Below are positions 4,146 to 15,901 of a stretch of DNA of 64,000 nt, piece by piece. The stretch spans positions 159,270 to 223,269 of the IMG/VR virus record IMGVR_UViG_3300033074_000580; one strand, 5' to 3'. Both the position numbers and the translations under genes were made by a program. The notes under the pieces were generated by a model. That model searched no databases. It saw nothing but the letters and a program-made list of their open reading frames with translations, and had not been told where the DNA came from. The first letter of the stretch is position 1. Each line of letters starts with the position of its first letter. Source of the stretch: a virus (taxonomy: Duplodnaviria; Heunggongvirae; Uroviricota; Caudoviricetes).

Positions 4146-4178
4146 AACCACAACATTTTTGTTGTGGTTTTTTTTGTT
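4146..4178 (+). terminator. rho-independent terminator
   Basis: CCACAACatttttGTTGTGG followed by T8. Confidence 0.75.
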
Positions 4179-4218
4179 GTTATAATTTTTTTTACCGTCT
4201 TGAAGACTGGTCGAAAAC

Positions 4219-4251
4219 TTTACTGGATTAGGGGTATTACATTCCAGTAAA
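4219..4251. repeat. TTTACTGGA / TCCAGTAAA inverted repeat
   Basis: 4219-4227 and 4243-4251. Confidence 0.9.
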
Positions 4252-4314
4252 GTATTACAGTTGGTTCACAGGGACGGTGAAAAAAAAATAAAAATAATTT
4301 ACAATAAAATGTAT

Positions 4315-4340
4315 TTTGTGTTATATTATTTGTATATTTG
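4315..4340 (+). promoter_or_regulatory. probable promoter (-7 TATATTTG; non-canonical -33 spacing)
   Basis: TATATTTG 4333-4340. Confidence 0.35.
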
Positions 4341-4363
4341 TAGACACTAAACACACACTTAAA

Positions 4364-4513
4364 ATGAAAGAAAAACAAGTAAACATTGACGACCTAATTA
4401 AAGTACTCGAAGAACAAGTACAAAAAGGAGTAACTATTGTTTCAATTAAAGGAACACTTAGTTCACCACAAGACGGAAACCTTATTATTTTATCCACCGA
4501 AAAACAAATGTAA
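4364..4513 (+). CDS. small hypothetical protein (49 aa)
   Basis: ORF 4316..4513 trimmed to ATG 4364 downstream of the -7 box at 4333-4340. Confidence 0.4.
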   Translation: MKEKQVNIDDLIKVLEEQVQKGVTIVSIKGTLSSPQDGNLIILSTEKQM

Positions 4514-4514
4514 A

Positions 4515-5078
4515 ATGAAAAAGTACGAATTAGAAATCGAACAAGACACAGATTCAGAAAATCCACGAACAAGTTGGGATAATGTTACCACAATGGTTTG
4601 TTTTCACAAACGATACAATTTAGGTGACAAACACAATTACAAATCCGATAACTTCGATAGTTGGGACGAGATGAAGGAACAAATTTTACTGGATTATAAC
4701 GTCCTAATGATTAAACCTTTGTATCTATTCGACCACTCGGGAATTACAATTTCAACAAAAGACTTTGGGGATAGATGGGATTCAGGAATGATAGGATTCA
4801 TATTCATTGATGAAAAGGAATGGAAAAAAATGATGGGTGAAGATATGGATAGAAGTGAAGAACGTTTACAAAGAATTATCGATGGTGACGTTGAAACTTA
4901 CGATTCATATTTACGAGGTGACGTTTACCGATATGAAGTTTACGAAGTAGAGGAATGTAATTTAGGTCACACACATAAAACCTTTGTTGAAGGTTGTGGA
5001 GGATATTATGATGAAGACGATTGTCGAAGTGAAGGTGAAAGGGTGATAGATTATTTACTGGAGAAAGTCCCTTCTTAA
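4515..5078 (+). CDS. hypothetical protein (187 aa)
   Basis: ORF 4437..5078 trimmed to ATG 4515, which starts 2 nt after the previous stop. Confidence 0.55.
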   Translation: MKKYELEIEQDTDSENPRTSWDNVTTMVCFHKRYNLGDKHNYKSDNFDSWDEMKEQILLDYNVLMIKPLYLFDHSGITISTKDFGDRWDSGMIGFIFIDEKEWKKMMGEDMDRSEERLQRIIDGDVETYDSYLRGDVYRYEVYEVEECNLGHTHKTFVEGCGGYYDEDDCRSEGERVIDYLLEKVPS

Positions 5079-5104
5079 CGGAGGGGACTAACGTCCTGAG
5101 TAAC

Positions 5105-5113
5105 TTTACTGGA
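5105..5113 (+). promoter_or_regulatory. TTTACTGGA upstream element
   Basis: 12 nt 5' of the TTTG at 5126. Confidence 0.5.
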
Positions 5114-5125
5114 TTGTAAATTTAA

Positions 5126-5157
5126 TTTGTATATAAAAGTATTACATTGTATATTTG
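5126..5157 (+). promoter_or_regulatory. Bacteroidota-type promoter
   Basis: TTTG 5126-5129, 20-nt spacer, TATATTTG 5150-5157. Confidence 0.6.
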
Positions 5158-5186
5158 ATTATTGTTTCACCTTAATAATTAACACT

Positions 5187-5513
5187 ATGTTTAATCAAGA
5201 TTTTAAAGACAGAGAAATTGAATTTCAAATGGACGACCTTTCAGACGAGGTTTATTTCGAAGGTTGTGATGAACACACCTTAACGGAAATGTTTATGATA
5301 CAACTATTCGAGAAAATTAAATTGAAAGATTGGTTTATTCAAGGAAATAAAACGGAAGGTATTGTAACCTTTCATTCAGACAACGAACTTACAATTGAAT
5401 GGAAGTCAATTACAATGGGGGACGATTGGGACACGGACGAAGAAGTAGAACATAAACAAGACGTCCTTTTGAATATCGACCCGAGTCAATGGGAAGTTAT
5501 AAATTACAATTAG
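5187..5513 (+). CDS. hypothetical acidic protein (108 aa)
   Basis: ORF 5127..5513 trimmed to ATG 5187 downstream of promoter 5126-5157. Confidence 0.5.
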   Translation: MFNQDFKDREIEFQMDDLSDEVYFEGCDEHTLTEMFMIQLFEKIKLKDWFIQGNKTEGIVTFHSDNELTIEWKSITMGDDWDTDEEVEHKQDVLLNIDPSQWEVINYN

Positions 5514-5536
5514 AATAGTTTAGAGTTAGGAACAGA

Positions 5537-5578
5537 GAATCCCTCAATCTTTTAGGTTGGGGGATTTTTGTTGTATTA
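5537..5578 (+). terminator. rho-independent terminator (repeated module)
   Basis: gagaatccctcaatcttttaggttgggggatttttg. Confidence 0.6.
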
Positions 5579-5605
5579 CGGATCTGATCTGATCAGGGTG
5601 AAAAC

Positions 5606-5636
5606 TTTACTGGATTGATTGTAATACTCCAGTAAA
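5606..5636. repeat. TTTACTGGA / TCCAGTAAA inverted repeat (13-nt spacer containing GTAATAC)
   Basis: 5606-5614 and 5628-5636; same spacer form as 9688-9718. Confidence 0.9.
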
Positions 5637-5770
5637 CTATTTCAGGTGATCCACGGGGATCATCAGGAAAAAATAATTTAAAATAAATTGAATTCTTTTA
5701 AAAAAAGATTTGGATAATATCTAAAATAGATTTACATTTGTTCATTCATTCACCATAAAACATATACGAT

Positions 5771-6616
5771 ATGTTATTTCCAACACAAGACAAATTGGAT
5801 TGGTCAGTAAGAACTGAAACTATCCAAACAGAATCAGGAATTCAAATTCCTAACAAGATGTCAATTATTCGTAATGACACAAATGACTTTCTTTCTATTT
5901 GTAGTGATGACTACTATCCCTACCAAAACGAAGAACTAATTAACCTACTTCAAAAGGTATCAGGTTTAACAGGACTTGATATTGTTAAGTGTGGTTTCTT
6001 CGGTAAAGGGGAAAAGGTCTTTATTCAAATGAAATCCGATAACCTTAAATTAGGTACGGATAGAATTGAAGGTTATATGACAGGTATCAATTCATTCGAT
6101 GGTTCAACCTCGTTATCATTCGGACCTAGTAACATTACAATCAGTTGTCAAAACACATTCTATTCGTCTTACAAACAAATGGAGAATAAAGTAAGACACA
6201 CAAAGAACATGGTTGTTCGTGTAGACGAAATTTGTAGAAACGTTGAATCAGTATTAGACGAAGAAAAAATTATCTTCGATAATATCATTCAATTATCTGA
6301 AACTCGTTTCGATGATATTATTAAAGATGACGTTGTTCGTAAGTTGTTCAACATTAAAAAGGAAATCGACCTTAAAGATGATGAATCAATTTCAACAGTT
6401 ACACGAAATAAGATGTCGAAATTCTATGTAGATTTACACGGAGAACTTCAAGAAAAAGGTGATAACCTTTGGGGTTTATTTAGTGGAGTTACAAAGTACA
6501 CTACACATAGTATGTACAAAGGTGATAACACGGAACGTAAAATGTTCGGTATGACAGAACGTTCAGTCGGTGGAATCGAACGAAATATTTTTAAAGGTTT
6601 AGTTGAATTGGTATAA
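5771..6616 (+). CDS. DUF932-family phage/plasmid-like protein
   Basis: 281 aa; the segment 'IIRNDTNDFLSICSDDYYPYQNEEL' resembles the DUF932/TIGR03299 signature (R-x-D-t...vs..Y-x-p-x-QN). Confidence 0.6.
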   Translation: MLFPTQDKLDWSVRTETIQTESGIQIPNKMSIIRNDTNDFLSICSDDYYPYQNEELINLLQKVSGLTGLDIVKCGFFGKGEKVFIQMKSDNLKLGTDRIEGYMTGINSFDGSTSLSFGPSNITISCQNTFYSSYKQMENKVRHTKNMVVRVDEICRNVESVLDEEKIIFDNIIQLSETRFDDIIKDDVVRKLFNIKKEIDLKDDESISTVTRNKMSKFYVDLHGELQEKGDNLWGLFSGVTKYTTHSMYKGDNTERKMFGMTERSVGGIERNIFKGLVELV

Positions 6617-6641
6617 AATCCAATTGGTTAGGTTAAGGGGA

Positions 6642-6669
6642 ACCCTCGTAGTAATACGGGGGTTTTTTA
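6642..6669 (+). terminator. rho-independent terminator
   Basis: ACCCTCGTAgtaaTACGGGGGT followed by T6. Confidence 0.7.
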
Positions 6670-6760
6670 TTTGTCTGGATTTTGTCCAGGCAAAATCTGT
6701 ATAAATTTTACTGGATTAAAGTACACCAGTTTTTTACCTGCTGATCCCCAGCTCACGAAC

Positions 6761-6782
6761 TTTACTGGATTGGTCCAGTAAA
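6761..6782. repeat. TTTACTGGA-TTGG-TCCAGTAAA tight inverted repeat inside a larger palindrome
   Basis: 6761-6769 and 6774-6782, flanked by the inverted repeat 6724-6747 / 6805-6822. Confidence 0.9.
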
Positions 6783-6837
6783 CTTTTGCCAGGAGGATCA
6801 CTGGTAAAAAACTTTTAGTTCTGGAATGAAAAATAAA

Positions 6838-6869
6838 TTTGTATGGAAACTATATAAGTGTTATATTTG
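6838..6869 (+). promoter_or_regulatory. Bacteroidota-type promoter
   Basis: TTTG 6838-6841, 20-nt spacer, TATATTTG 6862-6869. Confidence 0.65.
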
Positions 6870-6897
6870 TGTATTGTTTAATTAAAACCATATACAA

Positions 6898-7323
6898 ATG
6901 AGTATGTTAAAAAACATTGAAACCTATCGAGAGTTTCTTAAAAAACAGAAAGAAGAAAGAGAGTCTTTCTTGGAAATCGTATCAACAAAAATTGTTGACG
7001 GACTAACTGACTACATTAAAGATTTTGGTTGGGTTCGTAAAGGTAAAAGTGGTGGTCTTAGTGGTGATAAGATTAAAGGTGTTAAGTACACCAAAAATTT
7101 CAATGGTAAAGATGTTACTATCGAGTATCGTAACAATTTACGAATTGATAACGACGGGTTATATTACTCGGGTGGTTTTAATGAATTCATCCACGACAAA
7201 TCGTTAGGTGAACCATTAGAGGTACTTCGAATGAGACACTTCTATTGGAATGGTGAACATACGACAGGTTGGGATTTAGATGAGGTACTTAGACGAATGG
7301 ATGAGTTCTATTCTAAACAATAA
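6898..7323 (+). CDS. hypothetical protein (141 aa)
   Basis: ORF track; promoter 6838-6869 upstream. Confidence 0.55.
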   Translation: MSMLKNIETYREFLKKQKEERESFLEIVSTKIVDGLTDYIKDFGWVRKGKSGGLSGDKIKGVKYTKNFNGKDVTIEYRNNLRIDNDGLYYSGGFNEFIHDKSLGEPLEVLRMRHFYWNGEHTTGWDLDEVLRRMDEFYSKQ

Positions 7324-7379
7324 TTGACGGGGGACAAAGTCCCCCTTCTATAATTCATAACACAAAAAACTATACTGGA

Positions 7380-7754
7380 ATGAAACTACATATTTTAAAA
7401 GTAACTGACCAAGACGATTCACAATTTGAATCGTATTACACATTCAAAAGTTTAAGAGAACAAGTATTAAACGAATGGTACGATGTGTGGGGAGAACACA
7501 AGGAAGAATCTCAGGACTATACCAAAGAACAAATTCAAAATAGTGATGAAGATTTGATAAGTTATATGGGAAGTTGGGGTTACAATGTCGAAGTGGTTTG
7601 GATTGGTACACAAGACGATTTTCCAAAACGAACCGATGTTATTGAAGTTGATATTTCATTCTATCACCCTAACGATAACGAGAGAATTAAAGTATATGAC
7701 GATGAGGGTATGAGAGAGGAGTTCGAATATAAATTAAAAAACCTTGTAAAATAA
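7380..7754 (+). CDS. hypothetical acidic protein (124 aa)
   Basis: ORF track. Confidence 0.5.
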   Translation: MKLHILKVTDQDDSQFESYYTFKSLREQVLNEWYDVWGEHKEESQDYTKEQIQNSDEDLISYMGSWGYNVEVVWIGTQDDFPKRTDVIEVDISFYHPNDNERIKVYDDEGMREEFEYKLKNLVK

Positions 7755-7759
7755 TTCTT

Positions 7760-8011
7760 ATGTCAAACTATCAAATTAAATCAAATCAGTACATTCCACG
7801 AAATGCGAAATCCACCCCAAGTGGATTTCCAATGTGTTCAACGTATTACTATGTTGTTAATGAGGACAATAAGATAATAAACAAACACACCCTCAAAACA
7901 TATCGAGGAAGAAATTTAGATATGTTTTATTTCAGGACAGAAGAAGGGGCGAAAACTTTACTGGAACAATTAAATAATTTGGAAAGTGTTGGTATTACCG
8001 AATTAAAGTAA
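7760..8011 (+). CDS. hypothetical protein (83 aa)
   Basis: ORF track. Confidence 0.5.
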   Translation: MSNYQIKSNQYIPRNAKSTPSGFPMCSTYYYVVNEDNKIINKHTLKTYRGRNLDMFYFRTEEGAKTLLEQLNNLESVGITELK

Positions 8012-8043
8012 TACATTTGTACACACCATAAAAATAACACACA

Positions 8044-8307
8044 ATGGAAACATTTGATTTTTACTTAGACACAAAGGTTACGACTTGGTATCGTACACCA
8101 TTTGAAATTGAGGCTAAATCTTTGGAGGAGGCTAAAAAGTTAGCTATTGAGTTTGTTGAAAAAGATAGACACTCCGAAATTTCTTGGGAACAAATTGACG
8201 ACACCATTGAGGTAATGTCAACAAAAGATAATGATAACCAATCAACGGAGGTGTTATATTACGAACCTGTTGGAGATATGATTTGGGATAACACTAAAAC
8301 TAATTAA
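8044..8307 (+). CDS. hypothetical protein (87 aa)
   Basis: ORF track; -7 box TACATTTG at 8012-8019 upstream. Confidence 0.5.
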   Translation: METFDFYLDTKVTTWYRTPFEIEAKSLEEAKKLAIEFVEKDRHSEISWEQIDDTIEVMSTKDNDNQSTEVLYYEPVGDMIWDNTKTN

Positions 8308-8308
8308 C

Positions 8309-8641
8309 ATGGGAGTAGGTAAAGAAATTTATAACACAAAAAATATCATTGACCTATCGAACGTGGATTCGTGGGACTTGATGAAAGAATTAAAATCTCG
8401 TGGGTATTACACAGATTTAATTTTCGGAGTAAGTGATGTGGATTTACAATTAGAGTCTATCAATGATGGTAGAGATGAAGACAATCAAATTGTTTTAAGT
8501 GAGGAGGAGAAGATGGATGTACTCGATAGTTGTTTTAGTGTTGAGTGGTATTGTCAACGAATGAACGAAGATATTGAACAAGAACTTCTTGACCATTATG
8601 ATTCGGAGGAGTATTACAAGAAAGAAGAAATAGAAGAATAG
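8309..8641 (+). CDS. hypothetical acidic protein (110 aa)
   Basis: ORF track; followed by terminator at about 8664-8697. Confidence 0.5.
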   Translation: MGVGKEIYNTKNIIDLSNVDSWDLMKELKSRGYYTDLIFGVSDVDLQLESINDGRDEDNQIVLSEEEKMDVLDSCFSVEWYCQRMNEDIEQELLDHYDSEEYYKKEEIEE

Positions 8642-8726
8642 TGTTTTAGTGGGTTAAACAATAGGAAGGGTGGACAGAAATGTTCACCTTTTTTTATTCC
8701 CCGAACTGTGCCGGCGACGGGAAAAC

Positions 8727-8748
8727 TTTACTGGATTGGTCCAGTATA
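8727..8748. repeat. TTTACTGGA-TTGG-TCCAGTAtA inverted repeat (one mismatch)
   Basis: 8727-8735 and 8740-8748. Confidence 0.8.
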
Positions 8749-8755
8749 CTTTACA

Positions 8756-8803
8756 CAGCGCATGCGCAGCATGATCTGCGAATTTGCGCAGCCTGATCTG
8801 CTG
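8756..8803. repeat. GC-rich GATC-containing repeat (GCGCAGC[A/C]TGATCTGC, twice)
   Basis: the 18-mer GCGCAGCCTGATCTGCTG at 8786-8803 is identical to 9730-9747. Confidence 0.85.
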
Positions 8804-8810
8804 TAAATAA

Positions 8811-8819
8811 TTTACTGGA
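8811..8819 (+). promoter_or_regulatory. TTTACTGGA upstream element
   Basis: 13 nt 5' of the TTTG at 8833. Confidence 0.45.
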
Positions 8820-8884
8820 TTGAAAATATTATTTTGTTATAATCATTTTATTGTTTTATCTTTACACAACTAAAACACACATAT

Positions 8885-9643
8885 ATGGAAATGAAATTCA
8901 CAACCGTGGCGGAAGCCAAACGATTAACAGGTTTATCCTATCTCGCTAAATGTAACCACACAGCGAAACACAAAAAGGCATATAAGTACGATGAACTTGT
9001 GTATAGCCTTTATTTAGCTCCCGCGAAAATGTCTGGTTACGAAGTTTGTCCGATGAGAAATAAACATTGTACGAACTTATGTCTAAATGAATCAGGTCAC
9101 AACCGAATCGATATCCACGAAAATAAAATTAACCAATCGCGAATAACTAAAACTAAATTGTTTTTTGAGAACAGACAGTTTTTTATGGAGTGGATGATTT
9201 ATGAAATTAACTTTTATAAAAACAAAGCTAAAAAGTTAGGATATAACTTTAGTGTAAGATTAAACAATACGTCTGATTTATCCCCTGAATCATTTTATGT
9301 TGATATCGACGGAACAAAGAAAAATATATTACAATTGTTTCCCGATGTTCAATTCTACGATTACACAAAAGTTTTCAAAAGAACTGATTTAGTTAAAAAG
9401 TATAAAAATTACGATTTAACTTTTTCCTATAGTGGTACAAATATGGATGAATGTGTTCAGGCAATGGATAAGAAAATTAGAGTAGCCGTAGTATTCGAGG
9501 GTCTACCTACTACATTTTGGAATCGGAAAGTTGTCGACGGTGACAAGTACGATATGAGGTATTACGACCGAAAGAATATAATAGTCGGACTTAAGTTTAA
9601 GAAAGTCAGAAAGAAATTAGTAAAGAACCCCTTCGTAGTGTAG
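8885..9643 (+). CDS. hypothetical Cys/His-containing protein (252 aa)
   Basis: ORF track; slightly GC-richer codons than neighbouring genes; flanked by ~110-bp direct repeats. Confidence 0.55.
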   Translation: MEMKFTTVAEAKRLTGLSYLAKCNHTAKHKKAYKYDELVYSLYLAPAKMSGYEVCPMRNKHCTNLCLNESGHNRIDIHENKINQSRITKTKLFFENRQFFMEWMIYEINFYKNKAKKLGYNFSVRLNNTSDLSPESFYVDIDGTKKNILQLFPDVQFYDYTKVFKRTDLVKKYKNYDLTFSYSGTNMDECVQAMDKKIRVAVVFEGLPTTFWNRKVVDGDKYDMRYYDRKNIIVGLKFKKVRKKLVKNPFVV

Positions 9644-9653
9644 GGGTTTTTTA
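9626..9653 (+). terminator. rho-independent terminator
   Basis: AACCCCTtcgtagtgtAGGGGTT followed by a T-run; overlaps the 3' end of the gene. Confidence 0.7.
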
Positions 9654-9687
9654 TTGTGCACTGTATCTGCACAGCAACAGTAAAAAC

Positions 9688-9718
9688 TTTACTGGATTAA
9701 ATGTAATACTCCAGTAAA
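9688..9718. repeat. TTTACTGGA / TCCAGTAAA inverted repeat
   Basis: 9688-9696 and 9710-9718. Confidence 0.9.
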
Positions 9719-9727
9719 CTTTTTGAC

Positions 9728-9765
9728 ATGCGCAGCCTGATCTGCTGCAGATCATTCGCAGATCA
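9728..9765. repeat. GC-rich GATC-containing repeat, second copy
   Basis: GCGCAGCCTGATCTGCTG at 9730-9747, followed by GCAGATCAT twice. Confidence 0.85.
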
Positions 9766-9874
9766 TCTGTAAAGAATTTACTGGATTAAAAATAATTTAA
9801 AAAATTATTATCGTAATACTTGTACGGAATTAAAATTATACCTATCTTTGGTCTTCACTAAAACAATACACATT

Positions 9875-10303
9875 ATGGGAACTCGCTCAACTTATCGAAT
9901 TATCGAACAATTTACCGATAAAGGTAAAGTCGTAAATCAGGAAATCTGTTTAGTGTATCGTCAATTCGACGGATACCCAACAGGTCATCCAATGGAAACC
10001 GCTGAATGGTTGGCATCTGGCACAGTTGTAAATGGTTATTCTAATACGGATAATTTACAATTCAACGGAGCTGGTTGTTTAGCCGCACAACTTGTTGCGA
10101 AATATAAAGATGGTGTTGGTGGAACTTACATTCAATCTTTGAAATCTCGCGGAAACTCTTGGGAAGATTATCTTTATGACATTATTGTAAAAGAAGATAA
10201 AACTATTGAATATGTGTGCTATGAGAATGGGGTTCGTAAGAAAGAATTATTTCGTGGAACTCCACAGGACTTCGTAGAGAAATTTGAAAAACAAGAAGCG
10301 TAA
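9875..10303 (+). CDS. hypothetical protein (142 aa)
   Basis: ORF 9848..10303 (TTG start) trimmed to ATG 9875. Confidence 0.5.
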   Translation: MGTRSTYRIIEQFTDKGKVVNQEICLVYRQFDGYPTGHPMETAEWLASGTVVNGYSNTDNLQFNGAGCLAAQLVAKYKDGVGGTYIQSLKSRGNSWEDYLYDIIVKEDKTIEYVCYENGVRKKELFRGTPQDFVEKFEKQEA

Positions 10304-10674
10304 TGAAAAAACATCAAGTTAGATTCAATCTCGGAAAGGGAGAGAATTATATGAAGTGGAAAATAACTTACAACGACGGCAGGGTGGAATATCACCATCC
10401 TGCTGAAGTTCAGTTACTATTACACGATTGCACATTAAAGAACAACAGAAAGGCTGCACAGAGAATCTTTACTGGAGAGAGTACCAAAGTAGTTTGTGCT
10501 TATGTTCTTTGTAAGGGAATTGAAATCTTAACTGAAGATTTTATTCCTGAAACTTCCGCACATTTAAAATACAATCCTCGTGTGTTTCCATTTTGGAACT
10601 TGGATGGGATGAATGTGGATGGGAACGAATACAAAGAATTATTTTCTGTACACAGCAAGCTCTATCTAAAATAA
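10303..10674 (+). CDS. hypothetical protein (123 aa)
   Basis: ATGA stop/start overlap with the upstream gene. Confidence 0.5.
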   Translation: MKKHQVRFNLGKGENYMKWKITYNDGRVEYHHPAEVQLLLHDCTLKNNRKAAQRIFTGESTKVVCAYVLCKGIEILTEDFIPETSAHLKYNPRVFPFWNLDGMNVDGNEYKELFSVHSKLYLK

Positions 10675-10683
10675 TTTACTGGA
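10675..10683 (+). promoter_or_regulatory. TTTACTGGA upstream element
   Basis: 12 nt 5' of the TTTG at 10696. Confidence 0.5.
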
Positions 10684-10695
10684 TTGAAAAATAAG

Positions 10696-10727
10696 TTTGT
10701 TAAAATTAAATTATTGTAATACATTTG
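10696..10727 (+). promoter_or_regulatory. Bacteroidota-type promoter
   Basis: TTTG 10696-10699, 20-nt spacer, TACATTTG 10720-10727. Confidence 0.6.
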
Positions 10728-10781
10728 TACATCATTAACTCACAAACTCGTGGACAGGAGATAAACTGAACAACACTCACT

Positions 10782-11333
10782 ATGGGATTAGATATGTATC
10801 TCTCAAAGAAAACCTATGTTAAAAGATGGGGTTACGAAAAACCCGAAGAAGCATTTAATGTCACAATCCAAAAAAATGGGGTGACATATCCTCACATCAA
10901 GTCCGAACGAATTTCCTACATCACGGAAGAAATTATGTACTGGAGAAAAGCAAATCAAATTCACGGATGGATTTGTTCCAATGGTCAAGTAATCACGGAA
11001 GATGTTAGATACATTTTGGAAGGTGAACAAATTGTTGAGTTGCTTGAAACTTGTAAGAAAGTTCTTGAACTTATCAACACATCAACTAAATCGACTACAC
11101 AGGTTGTGGGTGGTTGGAGAAATGGTGAAGAATATAAAGTTGATGTTGATGTGTATGACAACACAGATGAGATTATGGAGTTACTTCCACCAACACAGGG
11201 ATTTTTCTTTGGTTCATCAATTATTGATGATTGGTATAAAGAACAAATCGAGGAAACTATTAAAGTGTTAGAAGAAGAAATCAATTCTAATACGGATAAT
11301 TATCCCGAATACGAATACTACGCTTCGTGGTAA
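10782..11333 (+). CDS. hypothetical protein (183 aa)
   Basis: ORF track; promoter 10696-10727 upstream and terminator 11345-11385 downstream. Confidence 0.5.
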   Translation: MGLDMYLSKKTYVKRWGYEKPEEAFNVTIQKNGVTYPHIKSERISYITEEIMYWRKANQIHGWICSNGQVITEDVRYILEGEQIVELLETCKKVLELINTSTKSTTQVVGGWRNGEEYKVDVDVYDNTDEIMELLPPTQGFFFGSSIIDDWYKEQIEETIKVLEEEINSNTDNYPEYEYYASW

Positions 11334-11344
11334 AATAAAATAAT

Positions 11345-11385
11345 GGGGATATTGTTAGGAATAATGATATCCCCTTTATATCTTT
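11345..11385 (+). terminator. probable terminator
   Basis: GGGGATAT...ATATCCCC stem with a U-rich tail. Confidence 0.5.
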
Positions 11386-11409
11386 GTTCAACATTTAAAC
11401 ACACAGACT

Positions 11410-12093
11410 ATGCCAAATTGGTGCAACAACTACATTGAGATTTCAGGTTCTAAGGAGAATATGAAACCCATCTACGATTACTTCAACGAAGGACAGAAAG
11501 TAATCGACAAGTATTACGAGGATGTTAAGAAGTACAGAGAAGAAAATCCTGACGCAACTGATTTAGGAGTTAGTTGGGAGGAGAATCTTGTTATGAATAC
11601 TTTAGTTCCACACGACGAGGAATACGACCGAATTAAAGAGTCAGGAGATTTCTTACTTAATCCTCAAACAAGATTTTATGGAACTAAATGGGACTTCGAC
11701 CTAAGGGAAGCAAATCTAAATCAGGTGGAAGAAACTTTAATCACATTAGCCCCATCAACAGCTTGGTCACCTCCATCCGAGTTCTGTCAAAGATTGACCA
11801 AGAAATATAATGTACACGTTAATCTTACATATGAGGAAGGTGGTGTAGGTTTTGTGGGTCAGGAAGAATTTGAGGGTGGTGAGATGATTGGACAGGTAAT
11901 CTACGAAGATTACTACGAAGGTCTTTACAATTTGGATAAAGAAACCTTTTGGAGTATGGTGGATTATGAATGTGATGATGTGGATGAAGACACCACAGAG
12001 GAGGAGTTTCTTGAGAAGTTCAATTCCTATGTGTCCGAAGAAGATTTGGAAAAGATTAAAGAATACTATCACGAATATAAAATAGAGTCGTAA
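11410..12093 (+). CDS. hypothetical protein, possibly DUF1281-like (N-terminal MPNWCNN motif)
   Basis: 227 aa; the family assignment is recalled from the N-terminal motif only. Confidence 0.45.
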   Translation: MPNWCNNYIEISGSKENMKPIYDYFNEGQKVIDKYYEDVKKYREENPDATDLGVSWEENLVMNTLVPHDEEYDRIKESGDFLLNPQTRFYGTKWDFDLREANLNQVEETLITLAPSTAWSPPSEFCQRLTKKYNVHVNLTYEEGGVGFVGQEEFEGGEMIGQVIYEDYYEGLYNLDKETFWSMVDYECDDVDEDTTEEEFLEKFNSYVSEEDLEKIKEYYHEYKIES

Positions 12094-12350
12094 TGGAAAA
12101 GAAGTTAAAAGTTAAATACAGCACATTTGTTAGCCCACTCTCATATAATGAGTGGGCACAACAATACAAGGTTTCAAGTTTATATACGGAGAGTACTCCA
12201 TATTATCAGGGAAACCTTACCCATCAGGAGCCAAACCAAAAATCCAGTTTATATCAGTCGATTGAGGATTTGTTCCCGAGAAGACCACTATTAAAATCAA
12301 TCATTCAAAAATTTAAAACAAAGAAAAGATGCCAAGAGAAAACAAACTAA
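12093..12350 (+). CDS. hypothetical protein (85 aa)
   Basis: ORF track; ATGA overlap with the upstream gene. Confidence 0.4.
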   Translation: MEKKLKVKYSTFVSPLSYNEWAQQYKVSSLYTESTPYYQGNLTHQEPNQKSSLYQSIEDLFPRRPLLKSIIQKFKTKKRCQEKTN

Positions 12351-12799
12351 CAGAAGGAGTGTTTACTGGAATAGTAGGGACTCGAGAAAGAATCAGTTCA
12401 TATGACCTATTCTTAGAAACGATGACCAAGAAGAATTCACCTGAATTATCTAAGTGGAGCAAGAAGTATCGTGACCACATCAATAAGAATAAGGTGAAGT
12501 TCCAAAACTTAGCCAAACTTGAGGAGGTGATAATGCAGCTCAGGAGTAAAGAAACTTTACTGGAGAACATCAAACTGTCACTCGTTCGTGAATACATCTA
12601 CGCAAGAGCATTGTTCTACCGTGAGGGTAAAGGGACAAAAGACATTCGTGTTATCGTCGACAAGACTGATATCTACGGTGAGGACCTTAATGTTCTTCTT
12701 AAGAATAAGGAATTTATGTCCAAAGCTGTAACCAAACTACAGGCTGCAATGGATAAAGAAATTGCTGAGAATGTGAGGACCATTGAAAATATATTCTAG
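12329..12799 (+). CDS. hypothetical protein (156 aa)
   Basis: ORF track. Confidence 0.5.
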   Translation: MPRENKLTEGVFTGIVGTRERISSYDLFLETMTKKNSPELSKWSKKYRDHINKNKVKFQNLAKLEEVIMQLRSKETLLENIKLSLVREYIYARALFYREGKGTKDIRVIVDKTDIYGEDLNVLLKNKEFMSKAVTKLQAAMDKEIAENVRTIENIF

Positions 12800-12851
12800 A
12801 ATTATTTGGAATATTCGAACGAAGTGTTAACTTTACTAAAAATTCACACAT

Positions 12852-13178
12852 ATGAACTACACAGAACAAATCAATCAATTGAGGGATAAGATGCATAAGG
12901 ACATCATCCACTCAGTTCAAAGAGCTCATTCGGTTATGGATGAGTTTGATGTCGAGTTACTTAATCCATTCTCCATTTGGGTAACCGAAGGGTTTGAGGA
13001 TGAGTATCAGGTTAATATTGCGGTTATGGGTGTATCAGGTATTACAGGTGATTTAATCACACGAGGTATTACAGAGGATGCATATTGTGATATTAACTAT
13101 AGTGACCTTACATTGGAGCAACTTGCATATCTCCACAGACAAATTGAAACACAACAATTCACCATAAACATAATATAA
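12852..13178 (+). CDS. hypothetical protein (108 aa)
   Basis: ORF track. Confidence 0.45.
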   Translation: MNYTEQINQLRDKMHKDIIHSVQRAHSVMDEFDVELLNPFSIWVTEGFEDEYQVNIAVMGVSGITGDLITRGITEDAYCDINYSDLTLEQLAYLHRQIETQQFTINII

Positions 13179-13179
13179 A

Positions 13180-13725
13180 ATGAAAACGATTCAATTAACT
13201 GAAGAAGTAATGGTATCCGACCCTTGTTACACGGTGCCAACCTGGTGTCAACATAAGCTCACAGGTGTATTACCAGGGGAGTATGTAACGAATGTTATGA
13301 AATCCGACGAGGGTGCTTGGGGACACAGGATAGGATTATTGGTGGCGGTCCATAAGGATTATGTCCACGATGATTTATCTTGGAGGGTAGTATCTGCGGC
13401 AGATATCGGGGTCGACTCGGGTCAGGCTGGCATCTTTGCAATGGACACATACAGAAAGGACAGCGTCTTCCAAGAACCAAACAACTTTGGTTTCTCCCAA
13501 GTTGCTGAGGGTGATCATTGGTACGGCCATATGTGTGATAGGACCTTAAGTGATGAGCAATGGGGAACTTACAGCCACGGGGTTGTTTCTTCCACAGGTT
13601 ACGGGGATGGTTCCTATAGATTATGTGTGGCAAAACACAATGGGAAGATTGTCGGGATTGGTATTGATTACTTGGGATATAAGAACTATGCGTTCAACCT
13701 GGTGATAGATAAAGAGTTGGTATAG
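13180..13725 (+). CDS. hypothetical protein (181 aa), GC-richer codon usage
   Basis: ORF track; compositionally distinct from the AT-rich upstream genes. Confidence 0.5.
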   Translation: MKTIQLTEEVMVSDPCYTVPTWCQHKLTGVLPGEYVTNVMKSDEGAWGHRIGLLVAVHKDYVHDDLSWRVVSAADIGVDSGQAGIFAMDTYRKDSVFQEPNNFGFSQVAEGDHWYGHMCDRTLSDEQWGTYSHGVVSSTGYGDGSYRLCVAKHNGKIVGIGIDYLGYKNYAFNLVIDKELV

Positions 13726-13784
13726 TTAAACAATATGAAGACGGGGGAGTTATTCCCCTATCTTTGTATATTAAATAAACAGAT

Positions 13785-13976
13785 ATGACAACAATTAGAA
13801 CACAGGTGATTCCAACCAAGAAAGGTTATGAAGTTTGGTACTCCTTAGATGGAGGACAATCAATGGAGCTTCATAGTGTCCACAAGACAATGGACAGTGC
13901 GGTGAAGGAAACGGTGAGCCTCAAGGGCCACTATACTTTACTGGAGAAGATTACACGTAAATTCACAAACCTCTAA
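13785..13976 (+). CDS. hypothetical protein (63 aa)
   Basis: ORF track. Confidence 0.4.
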   Translation: MTTIRTQVIPTKKGYEVWYSLDGGQSMELHSVHKTMDSAVKETVSLKGHYTLLEKITRKFTNL

Positions 13977-13989
13977 ATAACGATTAACT

Positions 13990-14127
13990 ATGAAAAAGTT
14001 CCTCAAGAAGGTAGAGTACATATGGGACATCTACTTCGTCTACTTCCTTTACAACGGCAATAAGACCGACCGTTATTATGCTTACCTCAGGAAGAAGTAC
14101 CCCGAAATGTTTACTGGAGAGAAGTAA
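13990..14127 (+). CDS. small hypothetical protein (45 aa)
   Basis: manually read ATG ORF (MKKFLKKVEYIWD...), too short for the ORF track. Confidence 0.3.
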   Translation: MKKFLKKVEYIWDIYFVYFLYNGNKTDRYYAYLRKKYPEMFTGEK

Positions 14128-14257
14128 TCTCCCCGTGATCACCCGGTGATCAGGACTCCGAAGTTTACTGGATTAGGGGACATGTAAAAATATTTTGCCG
14201 GCAGATTTTTTATTGTGGATATTATTTACTATATTTTAGTATAAAATAATAAAACAC

Positions 14258-14440
14258 ATGAAAAAACAATCATCAACACGCCGTCAGACTGTAACCACTT
14301 ATGTTCCTGTATCTGACAACATCTACCACGACGGTTCATCATACCGTGTACGTGTTAGTATCAACGGTAAGAAGTACTCTAAGAACTTCTCTAACAAACG
14401 TAAAGCGGTTTCATTCCGTAACGAATTGTTAGGTCGATAG
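14258..14440 (+). CDS. AP2/integrase-arm-like DNA-binding domain protein (60 aa)
   Basis: 'YRVRVSINGKKYSKNFSNKRKAVSFRNEL' resembles AP2/integrase DNA-binding folds; codons of the cgt/ggt/aac/tac type. Confidence 0.45.
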   Translation: MKKQSSTRRQTVTTYVPVSDNIYHDGSSYRVRVSINGKKYSKNFSNKRKAVSFRNELLGR

Positions 14441-15360
14441 TAAGTACTACTTCCAATAAGACTTCGGGGTCTCCTACAGTTGCTCATGTTAGCTGTACGG
14501 GGACCCTTCTTATTTGTACATGTCAGAGATATTCCTTACCTTGTTCTTAGGGAGGAAGAAGGTCCACAAACTTTACTGGATTAACTGATTACGGGACTCC
14601 CCTTCGGGTCGTCCCTTCATCCCGTGGTGAAGGTTCCACGTGGAACGTGGGTATTACACCATACATGTGGGACTGTATGACAGGGGTATATATTGTACTA
14701 TTCTAAGTCCCCGTCGAAAATTCCCTAAGGGTTTTTCTAAAAACCATATAACTATTCTAAGATTCAGGGATGTATTACCATCCTGAAGGGAGGACTCGTA
14801 GAGTCCGACCGACTCAATCACTTCTTTTGTGGACTTAATCCAGTAAACTATGTAATACATATAACCCATTATACGGGGGTCCTAACGGACCCCCTTCATC
14901 CCGTACAGTTGCCAGACAATATCACAATATTATGACCATAGTGTATTACCCATATTTGTCTGGCAAGAATTACGGGGACTCTGTCGAGTCCCCTTCAGGG
15001 GGGTTAGGACCTATAATGTATGACACGTTATATGGTATAATATGTATTACATAATACTATAATATAAACGGGATGAAGGACCGACCGAAACGAAGTGTAG
15101 GGAGGTCCGTATTACACTAAAATGGTTATATTCTGGTACCGGAAATAAAATGGGTCGTGATTCACGCAAGGGTCAATCCCGTAATACATTCCTAGCCCGT
15201 GGGGAAAAGTGGGAATTTGTGGATTGTAATACTGGTATCCCAAATTTTAGATAAAAAAAGATAATTTAGTATATATTTTTCGATCACGATAAAAGTGTCA
15301 GAAAAAAGTACAGGTTTTTGTACTAAAAACAGGAAAAAATTCGGTCTAATTTTAGGGGGA
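14441..15360. other. ORF-free, GC-rich, hairpin-dense repeat array at the convergent junction (candidate structured ncRNA cluster, or replication origin / iteron region)
   Basis: repeated modules: CCCTTCATCCCGT at 14613 and 14892, with the reverse-orientation copy at 15068 carrying one mismatch; TACAGTTGC twice; TACGGG(G)NYYC three times; UUCG/UUCA-looped GC stems; about eight GTAATAC/GTATTAC sites; AT-rich core 15036-15066. Confidence 0.5.
14633..14646. repeat. second copy of the perfect palindrome GTTCCACGTGGAAC
   Basis: identical to 3388-3401. Confidence 0.85.
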
Positions 15361-15451
15361 AAATAGTGTGGATTCTGACTATATTAGAGGGGTTTTATTA
15401 TGGGGTTCTGGAACCGGTATTGTCGGTCGGGAGTCTTTCGACTCCCTCCCT

Positions 15452-15901
15452 TCAGGGTGTATTAAAATTTAGATGTACTCTTCTTACTATACTCGGAGTA
15501 AACTTCTTATTATGTCTTGTCTTATGTCCTTGTTCATTTAAGAGATTACTTATCTGGGTATAATTTAGATATCCATTTACCTTTACAAATTCATCTATAA
15601 AGTTCTTACAGAATATCCAATTTTCATTCTCAATACGATTCCTTTTAATAGATTCAACACCCTTTAATGTGGCAACCTTTGTTAGATTCTGAGGTGAACC
15701 TAATTTAACTCCTCTATCTTTGGCTCGTTTCAATCCTTCTCTTGTCAATATTCCATGGTTAGTAAAATCAATCCCATGTACTTTACCGTGACAAACTTCA
15801 CATAAGGGTATGGTTTTAGTTCCCCCTTTACTCTGTGGAATCACATGATGATGATGTATATTTTCCTTAGAGTCACATTCAAAACAATAATATACTTTCA
15901 T
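15452..15901 (-). CDS. HNH endonuclease fused to a resolvase-type helix-turn-helix DNA-binding domain
   Basis: N-terminal 'CFECDSKENIHHHHVIPQSKGG...CEVCHGKVHG' HNH motif; C-terminal recombinase-like HTH. Confidence 0.8.
   Translation of the reverse strand: MKVYYCFECDSKENIHHHHVIPQSKGGTKTIPLCEVCHGKVHGIDFTNHGILTREGLKRAKDRGVKLGSPQNLTKVATLKGVESIKRNRIENENWIFCKNFIDEFVKVNGYLNYTQISNLLNEQGHKTRHNKKFTPSIVRRVHLNFNTP

Follow-up and report, generated by a model that had tools for sequence, protein, structure and literature searches.

To our knowledge, hardly any cis-acting control sites, replication origins included, have been recognised in uncultured jumbo phages or in phages of Bacteroidota. Elsewhere, iteron-type origins of phages and plasmids are exemplified by the lambda ori, the octamer repeats of the P4 ori and crr, and the RSF1010 oriV with its inverted ssiA/ssiB hairpins. 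The locus described here resembles such origins in its short co-oriented repeats, its boxes spaced by one helical turn, the DnaA-type boxes of its relatives, an adjoining AT-rich stretch, flanking hairpins in opposite orientations and a gene next door that is predicted to encode a DNA-binding protein. Unlike them, it lacks a recognisable gene for an initiator, helicase or primase in its vicinity (the candidate binder has only 60 aa), its iteron word extends over 17 kb and is excluded elsewhere, and it sits at a junction of convergent genes.

Repeat Region 3 (iss) of phage T5 is a 1.2-kb untranslated stretch of direct and inverted repeats, palindromes and DnaA or DnaA-like boxes, including TTATCCCCA; HNH genes are inserted between the T5 repeat regions, iss is better conserved than the neighbouring ORFs, and it has been proposed as the injection-stop site (Davison, 10.1101/866236). 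Similarly, our locus is a large untranslated region (about 1 kb) of nested repeats and palindromes that closes off a run of small early genes, with HNH genes inserted close by and stronger conservation than in the surrounding ORFs. In contrast, it shares no sequence homology with iss, the hosts and phage lineages are unrelated, and the T5 set of about eight paired DnaA/DnaA* boxes in fixed positions was not found, relatives carrying about one box per locus.

The PeSL (promoter-early stem-loop) cassettes of T4-type phages (Arbiol 2010, PMC2839356; Comeau 2014, PMC4122927) are composite stem-loop and promoter repeats placed between the small ORFs of a plastic early region, with indels of adjacent genes. 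The same arrangement, with promoters that are inferred, recurs at 1-15 kb of our window (the whole 64,000-nt stretch of phage DNA analysed here, to which all coordinates refer). However, the sequences differ from PeSL elements, from which they are set apart by description (TTTACTGGA inverted repeat, GTATKAC, TTCTGG..AAATAA), and the locus adds a core, phased boxes and TTAC-stem-TTCA modules that ordinary cassettes lack. REP/BIME elements and IS200/IS605-derived repeats also combine GC hairpins of variable stem with fixed short flanks, in both orientations and at converging gene ends, and TnpB lies beside the last module in some relatives of our locus. Unlike those repeats, the modules here are not dispersed, 96% of them lying in one locus; no Y1 transposase was seen, and the right-end hairpin of TnpB (TGTTCACGTTTACGTGAACG) is a different sequence.

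A gene-free locus shared by related jumbo phages

We interpret this gene-free stretch of 1 kb as a composite, conserved cis-acting DNA locus and not as a cluster of RNA genes, and we put the probability that it acts at the DNA level, as an array of protein-binding sites, at roughly 0.7. The locus is common to more than 100 metagenomic contigs of related jumbo phages: a pattern derived from its core matched at least 120 metagenome contigs, and about 113 loci among the matches listed are family members. The lineage is an uncultured family of giant freshwater phages, with Flavobacteria as the probable hosts. The nearest cultured relative of its ThyA is from a Flavobacterium phage, the sole lead among annotated phages; in the phage collection, blastn and tblastn returned no nucleotide-level homologue of the locus, and none was found for a 715-aa protein.

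Gene order is constant across at least 113 loci: the AP2-like gene, the locus, an optional HNH or TnpB gene, and a YunG-like gene. The locus stands at the 3′ end of a plus-strand block of about 17 kb of small early-type genes. Where the locus is minimal, the genes on both sides point towards it, which argues that it is not the promoter or operator region of a protein-coding gene. The core, the phased boxes, the GATCACGATAAAA motif, block A and the bracketing modules have kept their order and sequence, while the flanking proteins are 40-60% identical. A widespread and precisely delimited non-coding locus is thereby defined across more than 100 environmental contigs. In the window, its parts and immediate neighbours are as follows.

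14258-14440, plus strand: AP2/arm-type-like small gene (60 aa), the constant left neighbour and candidate DNA-binding protein
14441-14585: spacer, probable deletion scar, with short hairpins and, at 14566-14584, the left half of a split TTTACTGGATTA inverted repeat
14586-14625, plus strand: hairpin module M1, TTACGG-stem-loop-stem-CCTTCATCCCGT
14633-14646: perfect 14-bp palindrome GTTCCACGTGGAAC, resembling an operator and present a second time at 3388
14651-15232: ten iteron-like yGTATKACa sites of 7-8 bp, plus strand at 14651, 14675, 14772, 14943, 15018, 15044 and 15109, minus strand at 14852, 15181 and 15226
14688-14765: conserved unique block A, in which ACTATTCTAAG is directly repeated at a distance of 54 bp (14697 and 14751)
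14778-14813, minus strand: hairpin module M2, type 2, with a 2x2 internal loop (GA/GA on the plus strand)
14835-14858: right half of a split TTTACTGGA inverted repeat, plus a GTAATAC
14868-14904, plus strand: hairpin module M3, type 1
14908-14966, plus strand: long hairpin TTGCCAGACAATAT...ATATTTGTCTGGCAA, with GTATTAC in the loop
14967-15003, plus strand: hairpin module M4, type 1, whose stem differs from its orthologues by paired changes
15029-15066: AT-rich TATAAT(AC) repeat, aligned with a similar AT-rich stretch in relatives
15068-15115, minus strand: hairpin module M5, type 2, left member of the inverted pair around the central array
15131-15148, plus strand: promoter-like cassette element TTCTGGTACCGGAAATAA, 5 nt before the core
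15153-15180, plus strand: 28-bp core GGTCGTGATTCACGCAAGGGTCAATCCC, with no conserved start codon before it
15196-15224: phased boxes GTGGGGAAAAGTGGGAATTTGTGGAT, including a DnaA-box-like TGTGGAT
15240-15300: AT-rich stretch, candidate unwinding region, with the conserved GATCACGATAAAA at 15278-15290
15296-15410: A/T tract and TTAGGGG-type repeats TTTTAGGGGG, TTAGAGGGG and TTATGGGG, with a second TGTGGATT
15418-15460, plus strand: hairpin module M6, type 2, right member of the inverted pair, overlapping the HNH stop codon
15452-15901, minus strand: HNH endonuclease gene, inserted at the right edge as a mobile and variable element

An earlier note on this DNA had described the stretch as free of credible ORFs and as unusually hairpin-dense and repeat-bearing, and both descriptions were borne out. 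The longest ORF in 14441-15451 has 71 aa, and the small ORFs have no in-frame conservation in relatives. Two candidates were rejected individually. Relatives carry a frameshift in the 71-aa minus-strand ORF that covers block A, and a 34-aa ORF at 15150-15254, which initially looked conserved in frame, has a start that varies across relatives (cta, ata, tag, acg, gtg or atg before the core) and a C-terminus that is not conserved either. The sequence had also been called GC-rich, which holds for 14400-15100 (40-46% GC) relative to the background of about 32% but not for the right third (30-37% at 15200-15400). Rather than ending at 15360, as first proposed, the feature extends to the end of the last hairpin module at 15460.

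The repeats listed in that note are present as a mosaic of several motif families, with no tandem array. CCCTTCATCCCGT occurs twice in direct orientation, at 14613 and 14892, and once inverted, at 15068 (perfect over 12 nt, 89% over 19 nt), TACAGTTGC at 14476 and 14904, and TACGGGG.. three times (14496, 14872 and 14971). The palindrome copy at 14633-14646 was also confirmed. Two perfect copies of GTTCCACGTGGAAC were found in the window against 0.11 matches expected with up to two mismatches allowed; it is kept within the locus in L001-4, L010, L011 and L020, and in L141 a perfect and a near copy stand at the left boundary of the gene block. Block A is 80-83% identical to its relatives, compared to about 60% protein identity for the flanking genes. 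In the closest relatives the spacer position holds a terminator and an extra gene of 220-348 aa, of which fragments alone are left in the window. Two further candidate identities were discarded: a tandem repeat array or CRISPR (weak short tandem matches only, with repeat units that are non-identical and without spacers) and an attP-like site (no integrase, a core that is not tRNA-like, and a phage apparently of lytic jumbo type).

The small gene on the left is co-oriented with the core and was found 300-1900 nt before it in nearly all related loci that extend that far; its product has at least 190 homologous clusters, all of about 58-76 aa. The label AP2-like had no Pfam match at threshold, but it agrees with the predicted fold. 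The AF2 model (pLDDT 78) has four strands and a C-terminal helix, and its top PDB fold matches were the AP2 domain 7et4 (prob 0.90, E 0.46) and the integrase arm-type domains 3jtz, 3rmp and 5j0n, all with E of at least 0.46. With tblastn the protein reached a putative HNH endonuclease gene at E 5e-3, a weak AP2-domain match in T5-like phages. The modelled fold is thus consistent with DNA binding of the AP2/arm type.

The central array and a possible replication origin

The right part of the locus (15116-15417) is bracketed by two inverted hairpin modules that abut the converging gene ends. A reverse module occupies the M5 position in 49 of 66 loci under a strict pattern, and the M6 equivalent in relatives abuts the end of the YunG, HNH or TnpB gene. 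Immediately inside M5 lies the TTCTGGTACCGGAAATAA element; the window has five matches to it, none on the minus strand, where 0.03 would be expected. The other four belong to intergenic cassettes of the plus block, three of them 62-74 nt upstream of plus-strand gene starts, and from these sequences we infer a promoter function. Downstream of the core, GTGG/CCAC boxes are spaced by 10 nt in 119 of 162 cases and reach 18.7 per kb versus 1.4 in the background; relative to the fixed core, the GTGGG block is reverse-complemented in 64 of the 113 listed loci and not in the other 49.

An AT-rich core had been noted near 15036-15066, and a TATAATAC-type repeat does cover 15036-15064. Further to the right, the GATCACGATAAAA motif is kept across locus classes, and five contigs end a few nt past it. 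TTAGGGG reaches 7.5 per kb at +100 to +200 in relatives, against 0.02-0.05 in the background. The earlier count of about eight GTAATAC/GTATTAC sites was exact for the interval (eight), to which two GTATGAC are added. Relatives carry a median of 8 GTATKAC per locus, 86% of them co-oriented, with six in tandem at 16-19 nt spacing in L089, and the density of the word peaks at 12.9 per kb immediately upstream of the core.

We tentatively propose, at somewhat less than even odds, that this protein-binding array is an iteron-type replication origin insulated from transcription. Short direct repeats of the kind found at origins are present, as ten GTATKAC sites and GTGGG boxes phased at 10 nt. Of the two readings in the earlier note, iterons with an AT-rich unwinding element would suit this layout better, given the co-oriented GTATKAC, the 10-bp phased boxes, the AT-rich stretch and the DnaA-type boxes of relatives, but the window's own copy has no consensus DnaA box. 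Among 93 relatives, consensus DnaA boxes (TTWTNCACA) reach 1.5-4.4 per kb at -300 to +100 versus 0.1-0.2 in the background (10-40 fold), while the sole one-mismatch box of the window locus (TTTTCCCCA at 15200) is not above background. The interval 15200-15399, with its conserved GATCACGATAAAA, has 30% GC in a genome of about 32% GC; since the genome is AT-rich overall, an unwinding element is not distinctive here. The cumulative GC skew has a maximum at the locus and not the minimum of an origin-type switch in strand composition. A maximum at convergent genes is the position expected of a terminus, although the skew tracks gene orientation and is thus confounded with the direction of transcription.

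In the mechanism that we propose for such an origin, the modules would act as transcript-end hairpins that stop or process the two converging transcription units, so that the central array would be kept free of read-through. Sequence-specific proteins would then assemble on the array, the adjacent 60-aa AP2/arm-type-like protein binding the GTATKAC sites and host DnaA or a phage factor binding the phased boxes. The nearby AT-rich DNA would be opened, possibly aided by a short transcript from the cassette promoter. A clear list of parts and a candidate partner protein make binding, replication and transcript-mapping experiments directly designable.

Several observations sit uneasily with an origin. 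For an initiator, 60 aa is a small size, the adjacent genes include no helicase or primase, and the spread of GTATKAC over at least 13 kb upstream is unexplained by a simple origin.

GTATKAC and the two compartments of the genome

GTATKAC is not confined to the locus. It occurs at 1.3-3.5 per kb across at least 13 kb upstream, an enrichment of about 6-fold. Upstream sites number 761 versus about 120 expected, and downstream a single site was observed in 197 kb versus 54-60 expected. This enrichment on one side and absence on the other mark the locus as a sharp boundary between genome compartments; in L141 the motif-rich block begins just as sharply on its left side. The flanking compartments also differ in oligonucleotide usage, and GATC is tolerated in the small block and avoided in the large one. 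Many GTATKAC sites lie in the loops of intergenic inverted repeats, and the cassettes at 1-15 kb of the window combine a terminator, a GATC cluster, a TTTACTGGA inverted repeat with a GTATTAC loop and a TTCTGG..AAATAA element. Near-total exclusion of a 7-mer on one side together with its enrichment on the other constitutes a strong selective signature, suggesting a sequence-specific activity that splits the phage genome into two functional compartments.

These data support an alternative that we regard as unlikely, namely that the locus is a domain-organising or silencing hub. GTATKAC, TTTACTGGA inverted repeats and tolerated GATC would mark the block of about 17 kb and would have been purged from the remaining more than 200 kb. 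The AP2-like protein would read the word and arrest, anchor, silence or cut DNA there, and the densest cluster would nucleate a nucleoprotein complex over the 17-kb early block, with shut-off, positioning or protection of that block as possible roles. By analogy, it could be compared with small adaptors that act on an iteron centromere beside their own gene (ParR/parC, TubR/tubC) and with matS sites, which are restricted to one chromosome domain. In its favour, the motif peaks at the locus within a stretch of 6-fold enrichment and is excluded downstream, the edge in L141 is sharp, the AP2-like gene always adjoins, with a predicted fold that fits arm-type DNA binding, and many sites are held in the loops of inverted repeats. 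However, the pairing of protein and motif is assumed, exclusion of the motif elsewhere in the genome requires some unspecified activity that is harmful at ectopic sites, the surroundings of the locus revealed no partition NTPase gene, and the core, the 10-bp phased boxes, the AT-rich stretch and the bracketing hairpins are left unexplained. If true, it would be a phage counterpart of chromosome macrodomain organisers, independently evolved in phages of Bacteroidota, or alternatively an independent counterpart of the T5 arrangement of first-step transfer and injection stop.

We find it less probable still that the locus is itself a T5-like injection-stop, terminal-repeat-boundary or packaging element, in which case the plus-strand block would be the first to enter or would be terminally repeated, and DNA entry would pause, or the repeat or genome would end, at the locus. 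The similar mosaic, the TTATCCCCA/TTATCCACA boxes in relatives, the HNH/TnpB insertions at the edge and the different oligonucleotide usage of the two compartments agree with such a role. So do the contig ends, as 28 of 97 contigs terminate 60-360 nt downstream of the core, in tight clusters after CCCCA (+60-73) and GATCACGATAAAA (+140-144). However, this pile-up is equally expected from strain-level branching after conserved k-mers, the upstream contig ends are arbitrary within the block, the large contigs share no physical end upstream of the block, and the locus is internal in contigs of 333 kb and 324 kb. There is also no sequence similarity to any phage in the collection, the DnaA-box number and pairing typical of T5 are absent, with no consensus box in the window, and restriction avoidance runs opposite to that of T5, the small block tolerating GATC and the large one avoiding it.

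Hairpin modules and the structured-RNA readings

The six hairpin modules are of the type TTAC-stem-TTCA and are nearly confined to the locus: 219 of 229 modules lie within -1000 to +400 of the core, an interval that makes up 17% of the bases searched. Similarly, CCCTTCAKS occurs six times against 1.0 expected, with five of the six in the locus. A dispersed REP/MITE family was rejected on account of this restriction. Modules stand directly 3′ of stop codons, and M2 is 93% identical to its counterpart in relatives. The stems vary by paired changes between fixed flanks and have essentially no G.T pairs. The count of covarying positions is partly circular because the modules were chosen as hairpins, and with 39 of 42 distinct stems perfect, the assignment of a strand by G.T versus A.C mismatches is uninformative. 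The long hairpin at 14908-14966 presents compensatory changes in L079 and plus-strand G.T wobbles in L123, L085, L050 and L001. The two halves of the split inverted repeat, 14566-14584 and 14835-14853, pair over 19 nt at 89%.

These structures had led the earlier note to suggest a cluster of related structured RNAs, which is poorly supported: no Rfam match, tRNA or consensus fold was found, and of the proposed structures the local hairpins alone are real. The folding check that it called for was positive, both strands being far more stable than shuffled sequences (z = -6.2 and -5.7). Covariance-model scans of the window and 10 relatives gave no Rfam match at the gathering score and chance-level E-values alone, and ARAGORN found no tRNA or tmRNA in the window and 20 loci. 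Alignment to relatives gave a divided result: local hairpin modules covary, but the central part has no conserved RNA fold, RNAalifold returning an energy of about zero (-0.2 to -2.8) for -120 to +260 on either strand with 24-37 sequences. A single large folded RNA built on the long inverted repeats was likewise rejected, as its arms proved to be module copies in inverted orientation whose mismatches are C.A and T.C, and relatives differ in how the modules are ordered.

We give long odds to one or more non-coding RNAs, either with the modules and long inverted repeats as their structured parts or in the form of a transcript of about 290 nt running from the cassette promoter (15131-15148) to the hairpin 15418-15460. 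Fold z-scores of about -6 on both strands, covarying hairpin stems, plus-strand G.T wobbles in the GCCAGACAA hairpin family, a promoter-like element immediately upstream of the core and forward-type modules that trail plus-strand genes in a terminator-like manner are all compatible with RNA. On the other hand, Rfam matches are absent, the conserved right half lacks a consensus structure on both strands, the box block flips between lineages, the number and order of modules are shuffled among relatives, and a canonical terminator usually lies upstream of the locus. Furthermore, G.U is nearly unused in the stems, and the long-range pairings are inverted repeat copies with non-wobble mismatches. 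For the DNA-level reading that we prefer, the plus-strand G.T wobbles of some hairpins are a discordant observation, as they are compatible with RNA.

It is most doubtful that the locus is functionless debris left by mobile regulatory cassettes (PeSL-like terminator and promoter) and by genes that came and went at a recombination hotspot: it shares the cassette vocabulary (TTTACTGGA inverted repeats, GTATKAC, GATC, TTCTGG..AAATAA), a gene of 220-348 aa is variably present at its left and HNH/TnpB at its right, its first 250 nt or so in the window resemble a deletion scar, and PeSL cassettes mediate such shuffling in T4-type phages (PMC4122927), but the core, phased boxes, GATCACGATAAAA, block A and bracketing modules hold their order across lineages and the hairpin modules are locus-specific rather than scattered.

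At the right edge, the HNH assignment of the ORF at 15452-15901 is tentative, with PHROG HNH families at E 5.5e-6 and 7.8e-5 and Pfam scores just under the cutoffs (HNH_5, 22.3 bits against 27.5; HNH, 20.9 bits against 21.4). In relatives this gene is missing, swapped for another HNH gene or swapped for TnpB. The proposal of a mobile RNA or DNA linked to a homing endonuclease did not hold, since the synteny of the locus is fixed while HNH and TnpB genes come and go beside it. The locus is, rather, a recurrent landing site for HNH and TnpB genes.

Limits of the locus and its family

The non-coding locus (14441-15460) was bounded by the last plus-strand gene, a 60-aa ORF (14258-14440), and by the stop codon of a minus-strand HNH gene (15452-15901), and held no ORF longer than 71 aa. 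A 34-aa ORF from 15150 was rejected as a gene, since the codon preceding the conserved core described below varied (cta, ata, tag, acg, gtg, atg). The motifs listed in the earlier note were all found in place. Its description of the region as GC-rich applied to the left two thirds, with 40-46% GC over 14400-15100 compared to ~32% for the window, and failed for 15100-15400 (30-37%). Both strands folded far better than shuffled sequence (z = -6.2 and -5.7). In the covariance-model scan, no Rfam family reached threshold in the window and a permissive search returned chance-level matches only; nor was any tRNA found across the window. In one relative (L008), the Rfam tRNA model matched 5571-5668 (+), ~5 kb from the locus, at 35.2 bits against a gathering score of 29, although ARAGORN called no tRNA there.

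An annotated phage collection contained no match to the locus or to a 715-aa protein of the window. We recovered relatives from IMG/VR through the flanking 181-aa and 136-aa proteins. Their intergenic regions had patches in common with the window, the best conserved being a 28-bp core (15153-15180). A degenerate pattern made from this core matched at least 120 metagenome contigs, and ~113 of the fetched loci were true family members. The contigs came mostly from freshwater and some marine assemblies, with sizes including 216-333 kb. Non-coding control regions with iterons, hairpins and AT-rich DNA are already known as a kind; this family is new and widespread, has its own parts and lacks sequence relatives among described phages. 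The window's thymidylate synthase was closest to that of Flavobacterium phage immuto (58% identity). Several intergenic elements terminated in TAAATTTG-type motifs, which we take to resemble the Bacteroidota -7 promoter element, suggesting that the host is probably a flavobacterium.

Gene order was the same in nearly every locus of sufficient length: the 181-aa, 46-aa and 60-aa genes, the non-coding locus and, on the opposite strand, a YunG-like gene. Minimal loci spanned ~575 nt, from the end of the 60-aa gene at -325 to that of the YunG-like gene at +249 relative to the core; the window version measured ~1 kb. Both neighbours point into the minimal loci, so no protein-coding gene has its promoter or operator region there. 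Variable inserts occurred at two fixed points, after the 60-aa gene (a 220-348-aa gene) and at the right edge (either a TnpB/Cas12f-like gene or one of two unrelated types of HNH gene), so the locus itself is fixed and mobile genes land beside it. The left insert was missing from the window, where the first ~250 nt of the locus look like a deletion scar.

The TnpB/Cas12f-like gene (Pfam Cas12f1-like_TNB, OrfB_IS605) was inserted directly after the last hairpin module in several relatives, namely L003 (9103-10470, minus strand), L051, L102 and L107, and probably L001, L065 and L078. Just beyond its 3' end it carried a conserved hairpin of its own, TGTTCACGTTTACGTGAACG, probably part of an omega-RNA or the right end of the element. 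Upstream of the 60-aa gene, a 45-aa ORF (13990-14127, plus strand; starting MKKFLKKVEYIWDIYFVYFLYNGNK) without an assigned family showed 39-62% identity in most relatives and is therefore a real small gene.

Central array and hairpin modules

The locus comprised the following features (window positions).

14586, plus strand: hairpin module
14778, minus strand: hairpin module
14868, plus strand: hairpin module
14967, plus strand: hairpin module
15068, minus strand: hairpin module
15131-15148: promoter-like cassette element TTCTGGTACCGGAAATAA
15153-15180: core GGTCGTGATTCACGCAAGGGTCAATCCC
15196-15224: phased box block GTGGGGAAAAGTGGGAATTTGTGGAT
15278-15290: GATCACGATAAAA, within an AT-rich stretch
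15296-15410: A/T-tracts with TTTTAGGGGG, TTAGAGGGG and TTATGGGG
15418, plus strand: hairpin module

The pattern of the TTCTGGTACCGGAAATAA element occurred five times in the window (0.03 expected). The four further copies were in intergenic cassettes of the plus block, the run of small plus-strand genes that ends at the locus, and three of them lay 62-74 nt upstream of plus-strand gene starts; the copy at 15131-15148 resembles a cassette promoter, directed in this case at non-coding DNA. While the core kept one orientation, the box block came in two: GTGGG..GTGGG (49 loci) and the reverse complement, CCCAC..CCCAC (64 loci). Successive boxes were spaced 10 nt apart in 119 out of 162 cases and 20 nt in 26. 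Over -120..+260, neither strand gave an RNAalifold consensus structure (energies of -0.2 to -2.8; 24-37 non-redundant sequences). Block inversion, 10-nt spacing and lack of a consensus fold argue for recognition of the central array as double-stranded DNA. DnaA boxes (TTWTNCACA), often TGTGGATAA or TTATCCACA, were enriched 10-40 times at -300..+100 in the relatives, with ~1 per locus. The window's own locus contained no consensus box; TGTGGATT occurred twice together with one one-mismatch box, no higher than background.

Each hairpin module consisted of [AT]TTACGG, a GC stem of 7-9 bp, a 3-4-nt loop, the return stem and CCTTCA[GT][GC][GC], the repeated 'CCCTTCA' unit being the 3' flank. The window had six modules, and L001-L006 and L010 each carried about six in the syntenic region. 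Across 113 loci, under a strict hairpin definition, 219 out of 229 modules fell within -1000..+400 of the core, an interval representing 17% of the bases searched; they are a locus-specific family and not a dispersed repeat. From one copy or phage to the next, stems differed by paired changes, with constant flanks. Among 35 distinct modules, 55 cells were altered on both sides and none on one side (98.9% paired), a count that is partly circular because modules were chosen as hairpins in the first place. Stems were perfectly Watson-Crick in 39 out of 42 distinct cases, with a single G.T. A second type carried a 2x2 internal loop, TC/TC on one strand and GA/GA on the other.

Modules were placed directly after stop codons: 18 nt past the 294-aa gene in L001, after the shorter gene in L053-type loci, at the YunG-like gene end in minimal loci and, in the window, across the stop codon of the HNH gene. 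Most relatives also had a canonical hairpin-plus-T-run terminator directly 3' of the 60-aa gene. The modules probably serve the two converging transcription units as transcript-end hairpins. Two inverted type-2 modules (15068-15115 and 15418-15460) bracketed the central ~300 bp.

A heptamer restricted to the plus-strand compartment

The GTAATAC/GTATTAC sites proved to be part of a wider motif, yGTATKACa, present ten times in the window locus and with a median of 8 in relatives (-600..+120; 86% in plus orientation). L089 carried six copies at 16-19-nt spacing. The sites form an iteron-like array. GTAT[GT]AC occurred 39 times in 1-15232 of the window and not once in 15233-64000 (48.8 kb). In 92 distinct loci its density ran at 1.3-3.5 per kb across an upstream stretch of at least 13 kb, rose to 12.9 per kb over the last 500 nt ahead of the core and dropped to 1.8 per kb over the 500 nt that follow; beyond +500, a single occurrence was found in ~160 kb. 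Across these loci, 761 upstream copies were observed against ~120-126 expected under a second-order Markov model, and one downstream against ~54-55. GTATKAC was by far the most compartment-specific 7-mer. That it is kept out of the other compartment on either strand points to duplex-DNA recognition with a cost at ectopic sites. This restriction, for which a limited literature search found no described counterpart, is the most surprising result, and explaining it could make the locus considerably more important.

Contig L141, reaching 9.3 kb beyond the window, showed an equally sharp left edge: GTATKAC, TTTACTGGA and GATC all started with the plus-strand block, ~2.6-2.9 kb before window position 1, so the block measures ~17 kb. 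This motif-defined compartment, seen at 1-15232 in the window and at 6400-20360 in L141, is sharp at both edges. An intergenic cassette was repeated within it, made of a terminator, a GATC cluster, a TTTACTGGA inverted repeat, often with GTATTAC within the loop, and a TTCTGG..AAATAA element, reminiscent of the PeSL cassettes of T4-type phages. TTTACTGGA/TCCAGTAAA had 37 sites in the first 16 kb (54-14847) and none in the rest of the window, mostly in short intergenic inverted repeats (e.g. 546-575, 4219-4250, 5606-5640, 9688-9720), and GATC had 23 sites in 0-16 kb and one in 16-64 kb. Thus, the locus closes off a compartment that has a sequence vocabulary of its own.

Further differences accompanied this pattern. 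GATC, clustered within the block (e.g. GATCTGATCTGATCAG), was depleted ~9-fold downstream and 2-fold upstream of the locus in relatives, and L089 and L064 had none within the stretches searched. TGCA was wholly missing from ~13 kb of the block (window 1-8000; L141 5500-18900) and occurred at ~2 per kb elsewhere. CCGG-containing words were relatively depleted upstream, and the compartments differed in several short palindromes. The palindrome GTTCCACGTGGAAC had an extra copy in a block cassette (3388-3401); a perfect and a near copy (TTTCACGTGGAAC) marked the divergent left boundary (L141 ~6150 and ~6360), where an adjacent 130-aa minus-strand gene could encode its binding protein. Just outside that edge, a second non-coding stretch (L141 5730-5926), with A/T-tracts, TTTTAGGG and the GC hairpin GGGGGGTCTTTCGACCCCC, resembled the right part of the locus. 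Between the 45-aa and 60-aa genes lay an 11-nt tandem, ATCACCCCGTG / GATCACCCGGTGATCAGG (14127-14152), and two TTTACTGGA copies 54 nt apart (14109-14172), together a further cassette of the block vocabulary. A 98-aa early-block protein (2924-3220, plus strand; L141 12233-12529) had a precomputed Pfam match to RNA_pol_A_CTD and may mimic the RNA polymerase alpha C-terminal domain.

The 60-aa ORF, called AP2-like in the earlier note, matched no Pfam family at threshold; its own family comprised at least 190 clusters, each of ~58-76 aa. Its AlphaFold model (32 sequences; pLDDT 78) had four strands followed by a C-terminal helix. In the PDB it came closest to an AP2 domain from Arabidopsis (probability 0.90, yet E 0.46) and to arm-type DNA-binding domains from the integrases of HPI, P4-like elements and lambda; a weak tblastn match was a Salmonella phage gene annotated as a putative HNH endonuclease. 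The label is therefore plausible, if unproven. Since arm-type domains bind short asymmetric sites as monomers, this protein is a natural candidate for the reader of GTATKAC.

Candidate functions of the locus

We favour a DNA-level protein-binding locus, with a probability of roughly 70%. It would be an insulated site of nucleoprotein assembly, as suggested by the co-oriented iterons, the fixed core, the phased boxes in either orientation and the DnaA-type boxes of relatives, by the AT-rich stretch and bent-DNA-like A-tracts, and by the bracketing transcript-end hairpins, the inward promoter-like element and the dedicated gene for a small, predicted DNA-binding protein. An origin of replication would be its most economical specific function, which we hold only tentatively, at somewhat less than even odds. 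Against it stand the position at a convergent gene junction and the skew maximum, even if gene orientation confounds the latter. It also counts against an origin that the window lacks consensus DnaA boxes, that the candidate binder is small (60 aa) and that the iteron word spreads over 17 kb.

If read by the AP2-like protein, the locus could instead be a hub that organises or silences a domain, or a site akin to a centromere; this would best account for the compartment pattern but leaves the core, box and AT-rich array unexplained. An injection-stop, terminal-repeat-boundary or packaging element would recall phage T5. There, the pre-early genes end at Repeat Region 3, 1.2 kb of untranslated DNA in which repeats, palindromes and DnaA-like boxes form a mosaic, and HNH insertions are found between the remaining repeat regions (10.1101/866236). 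Consistent with such an element, 28 out of 97 contigs ended 60-360 nt past the core (equivalent to window ~15213-15510), clustering tightly after ..TCCCCA (..CCACTTTTTCCCCA) and within 1-4 nt after GATCACGATAAAA. However, the locus was internal in contigs of 324-333 kb, upstream contig ends were arbitrary and strain-level branching past conserved k-mers would give an identical pile-up, which reflects either assembly branching or real DNA ends.

The cluster of structured RNAs proposed earlier retained its local hairpins, some with plus-strand G.T wobbles, and the promoter-like element ahead of the core would suit one or more RNAs, but the inverting, 10-nt-phased boxes and the absence of an Rfam match in the window and of an RNAalifold consensus on either strand over -120..+260 speak against it. 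Finally, functionless cassette debris is contradicted by the fact that order and sequence are conserved between lineages with only 40-60% identity in their flanking proteins.
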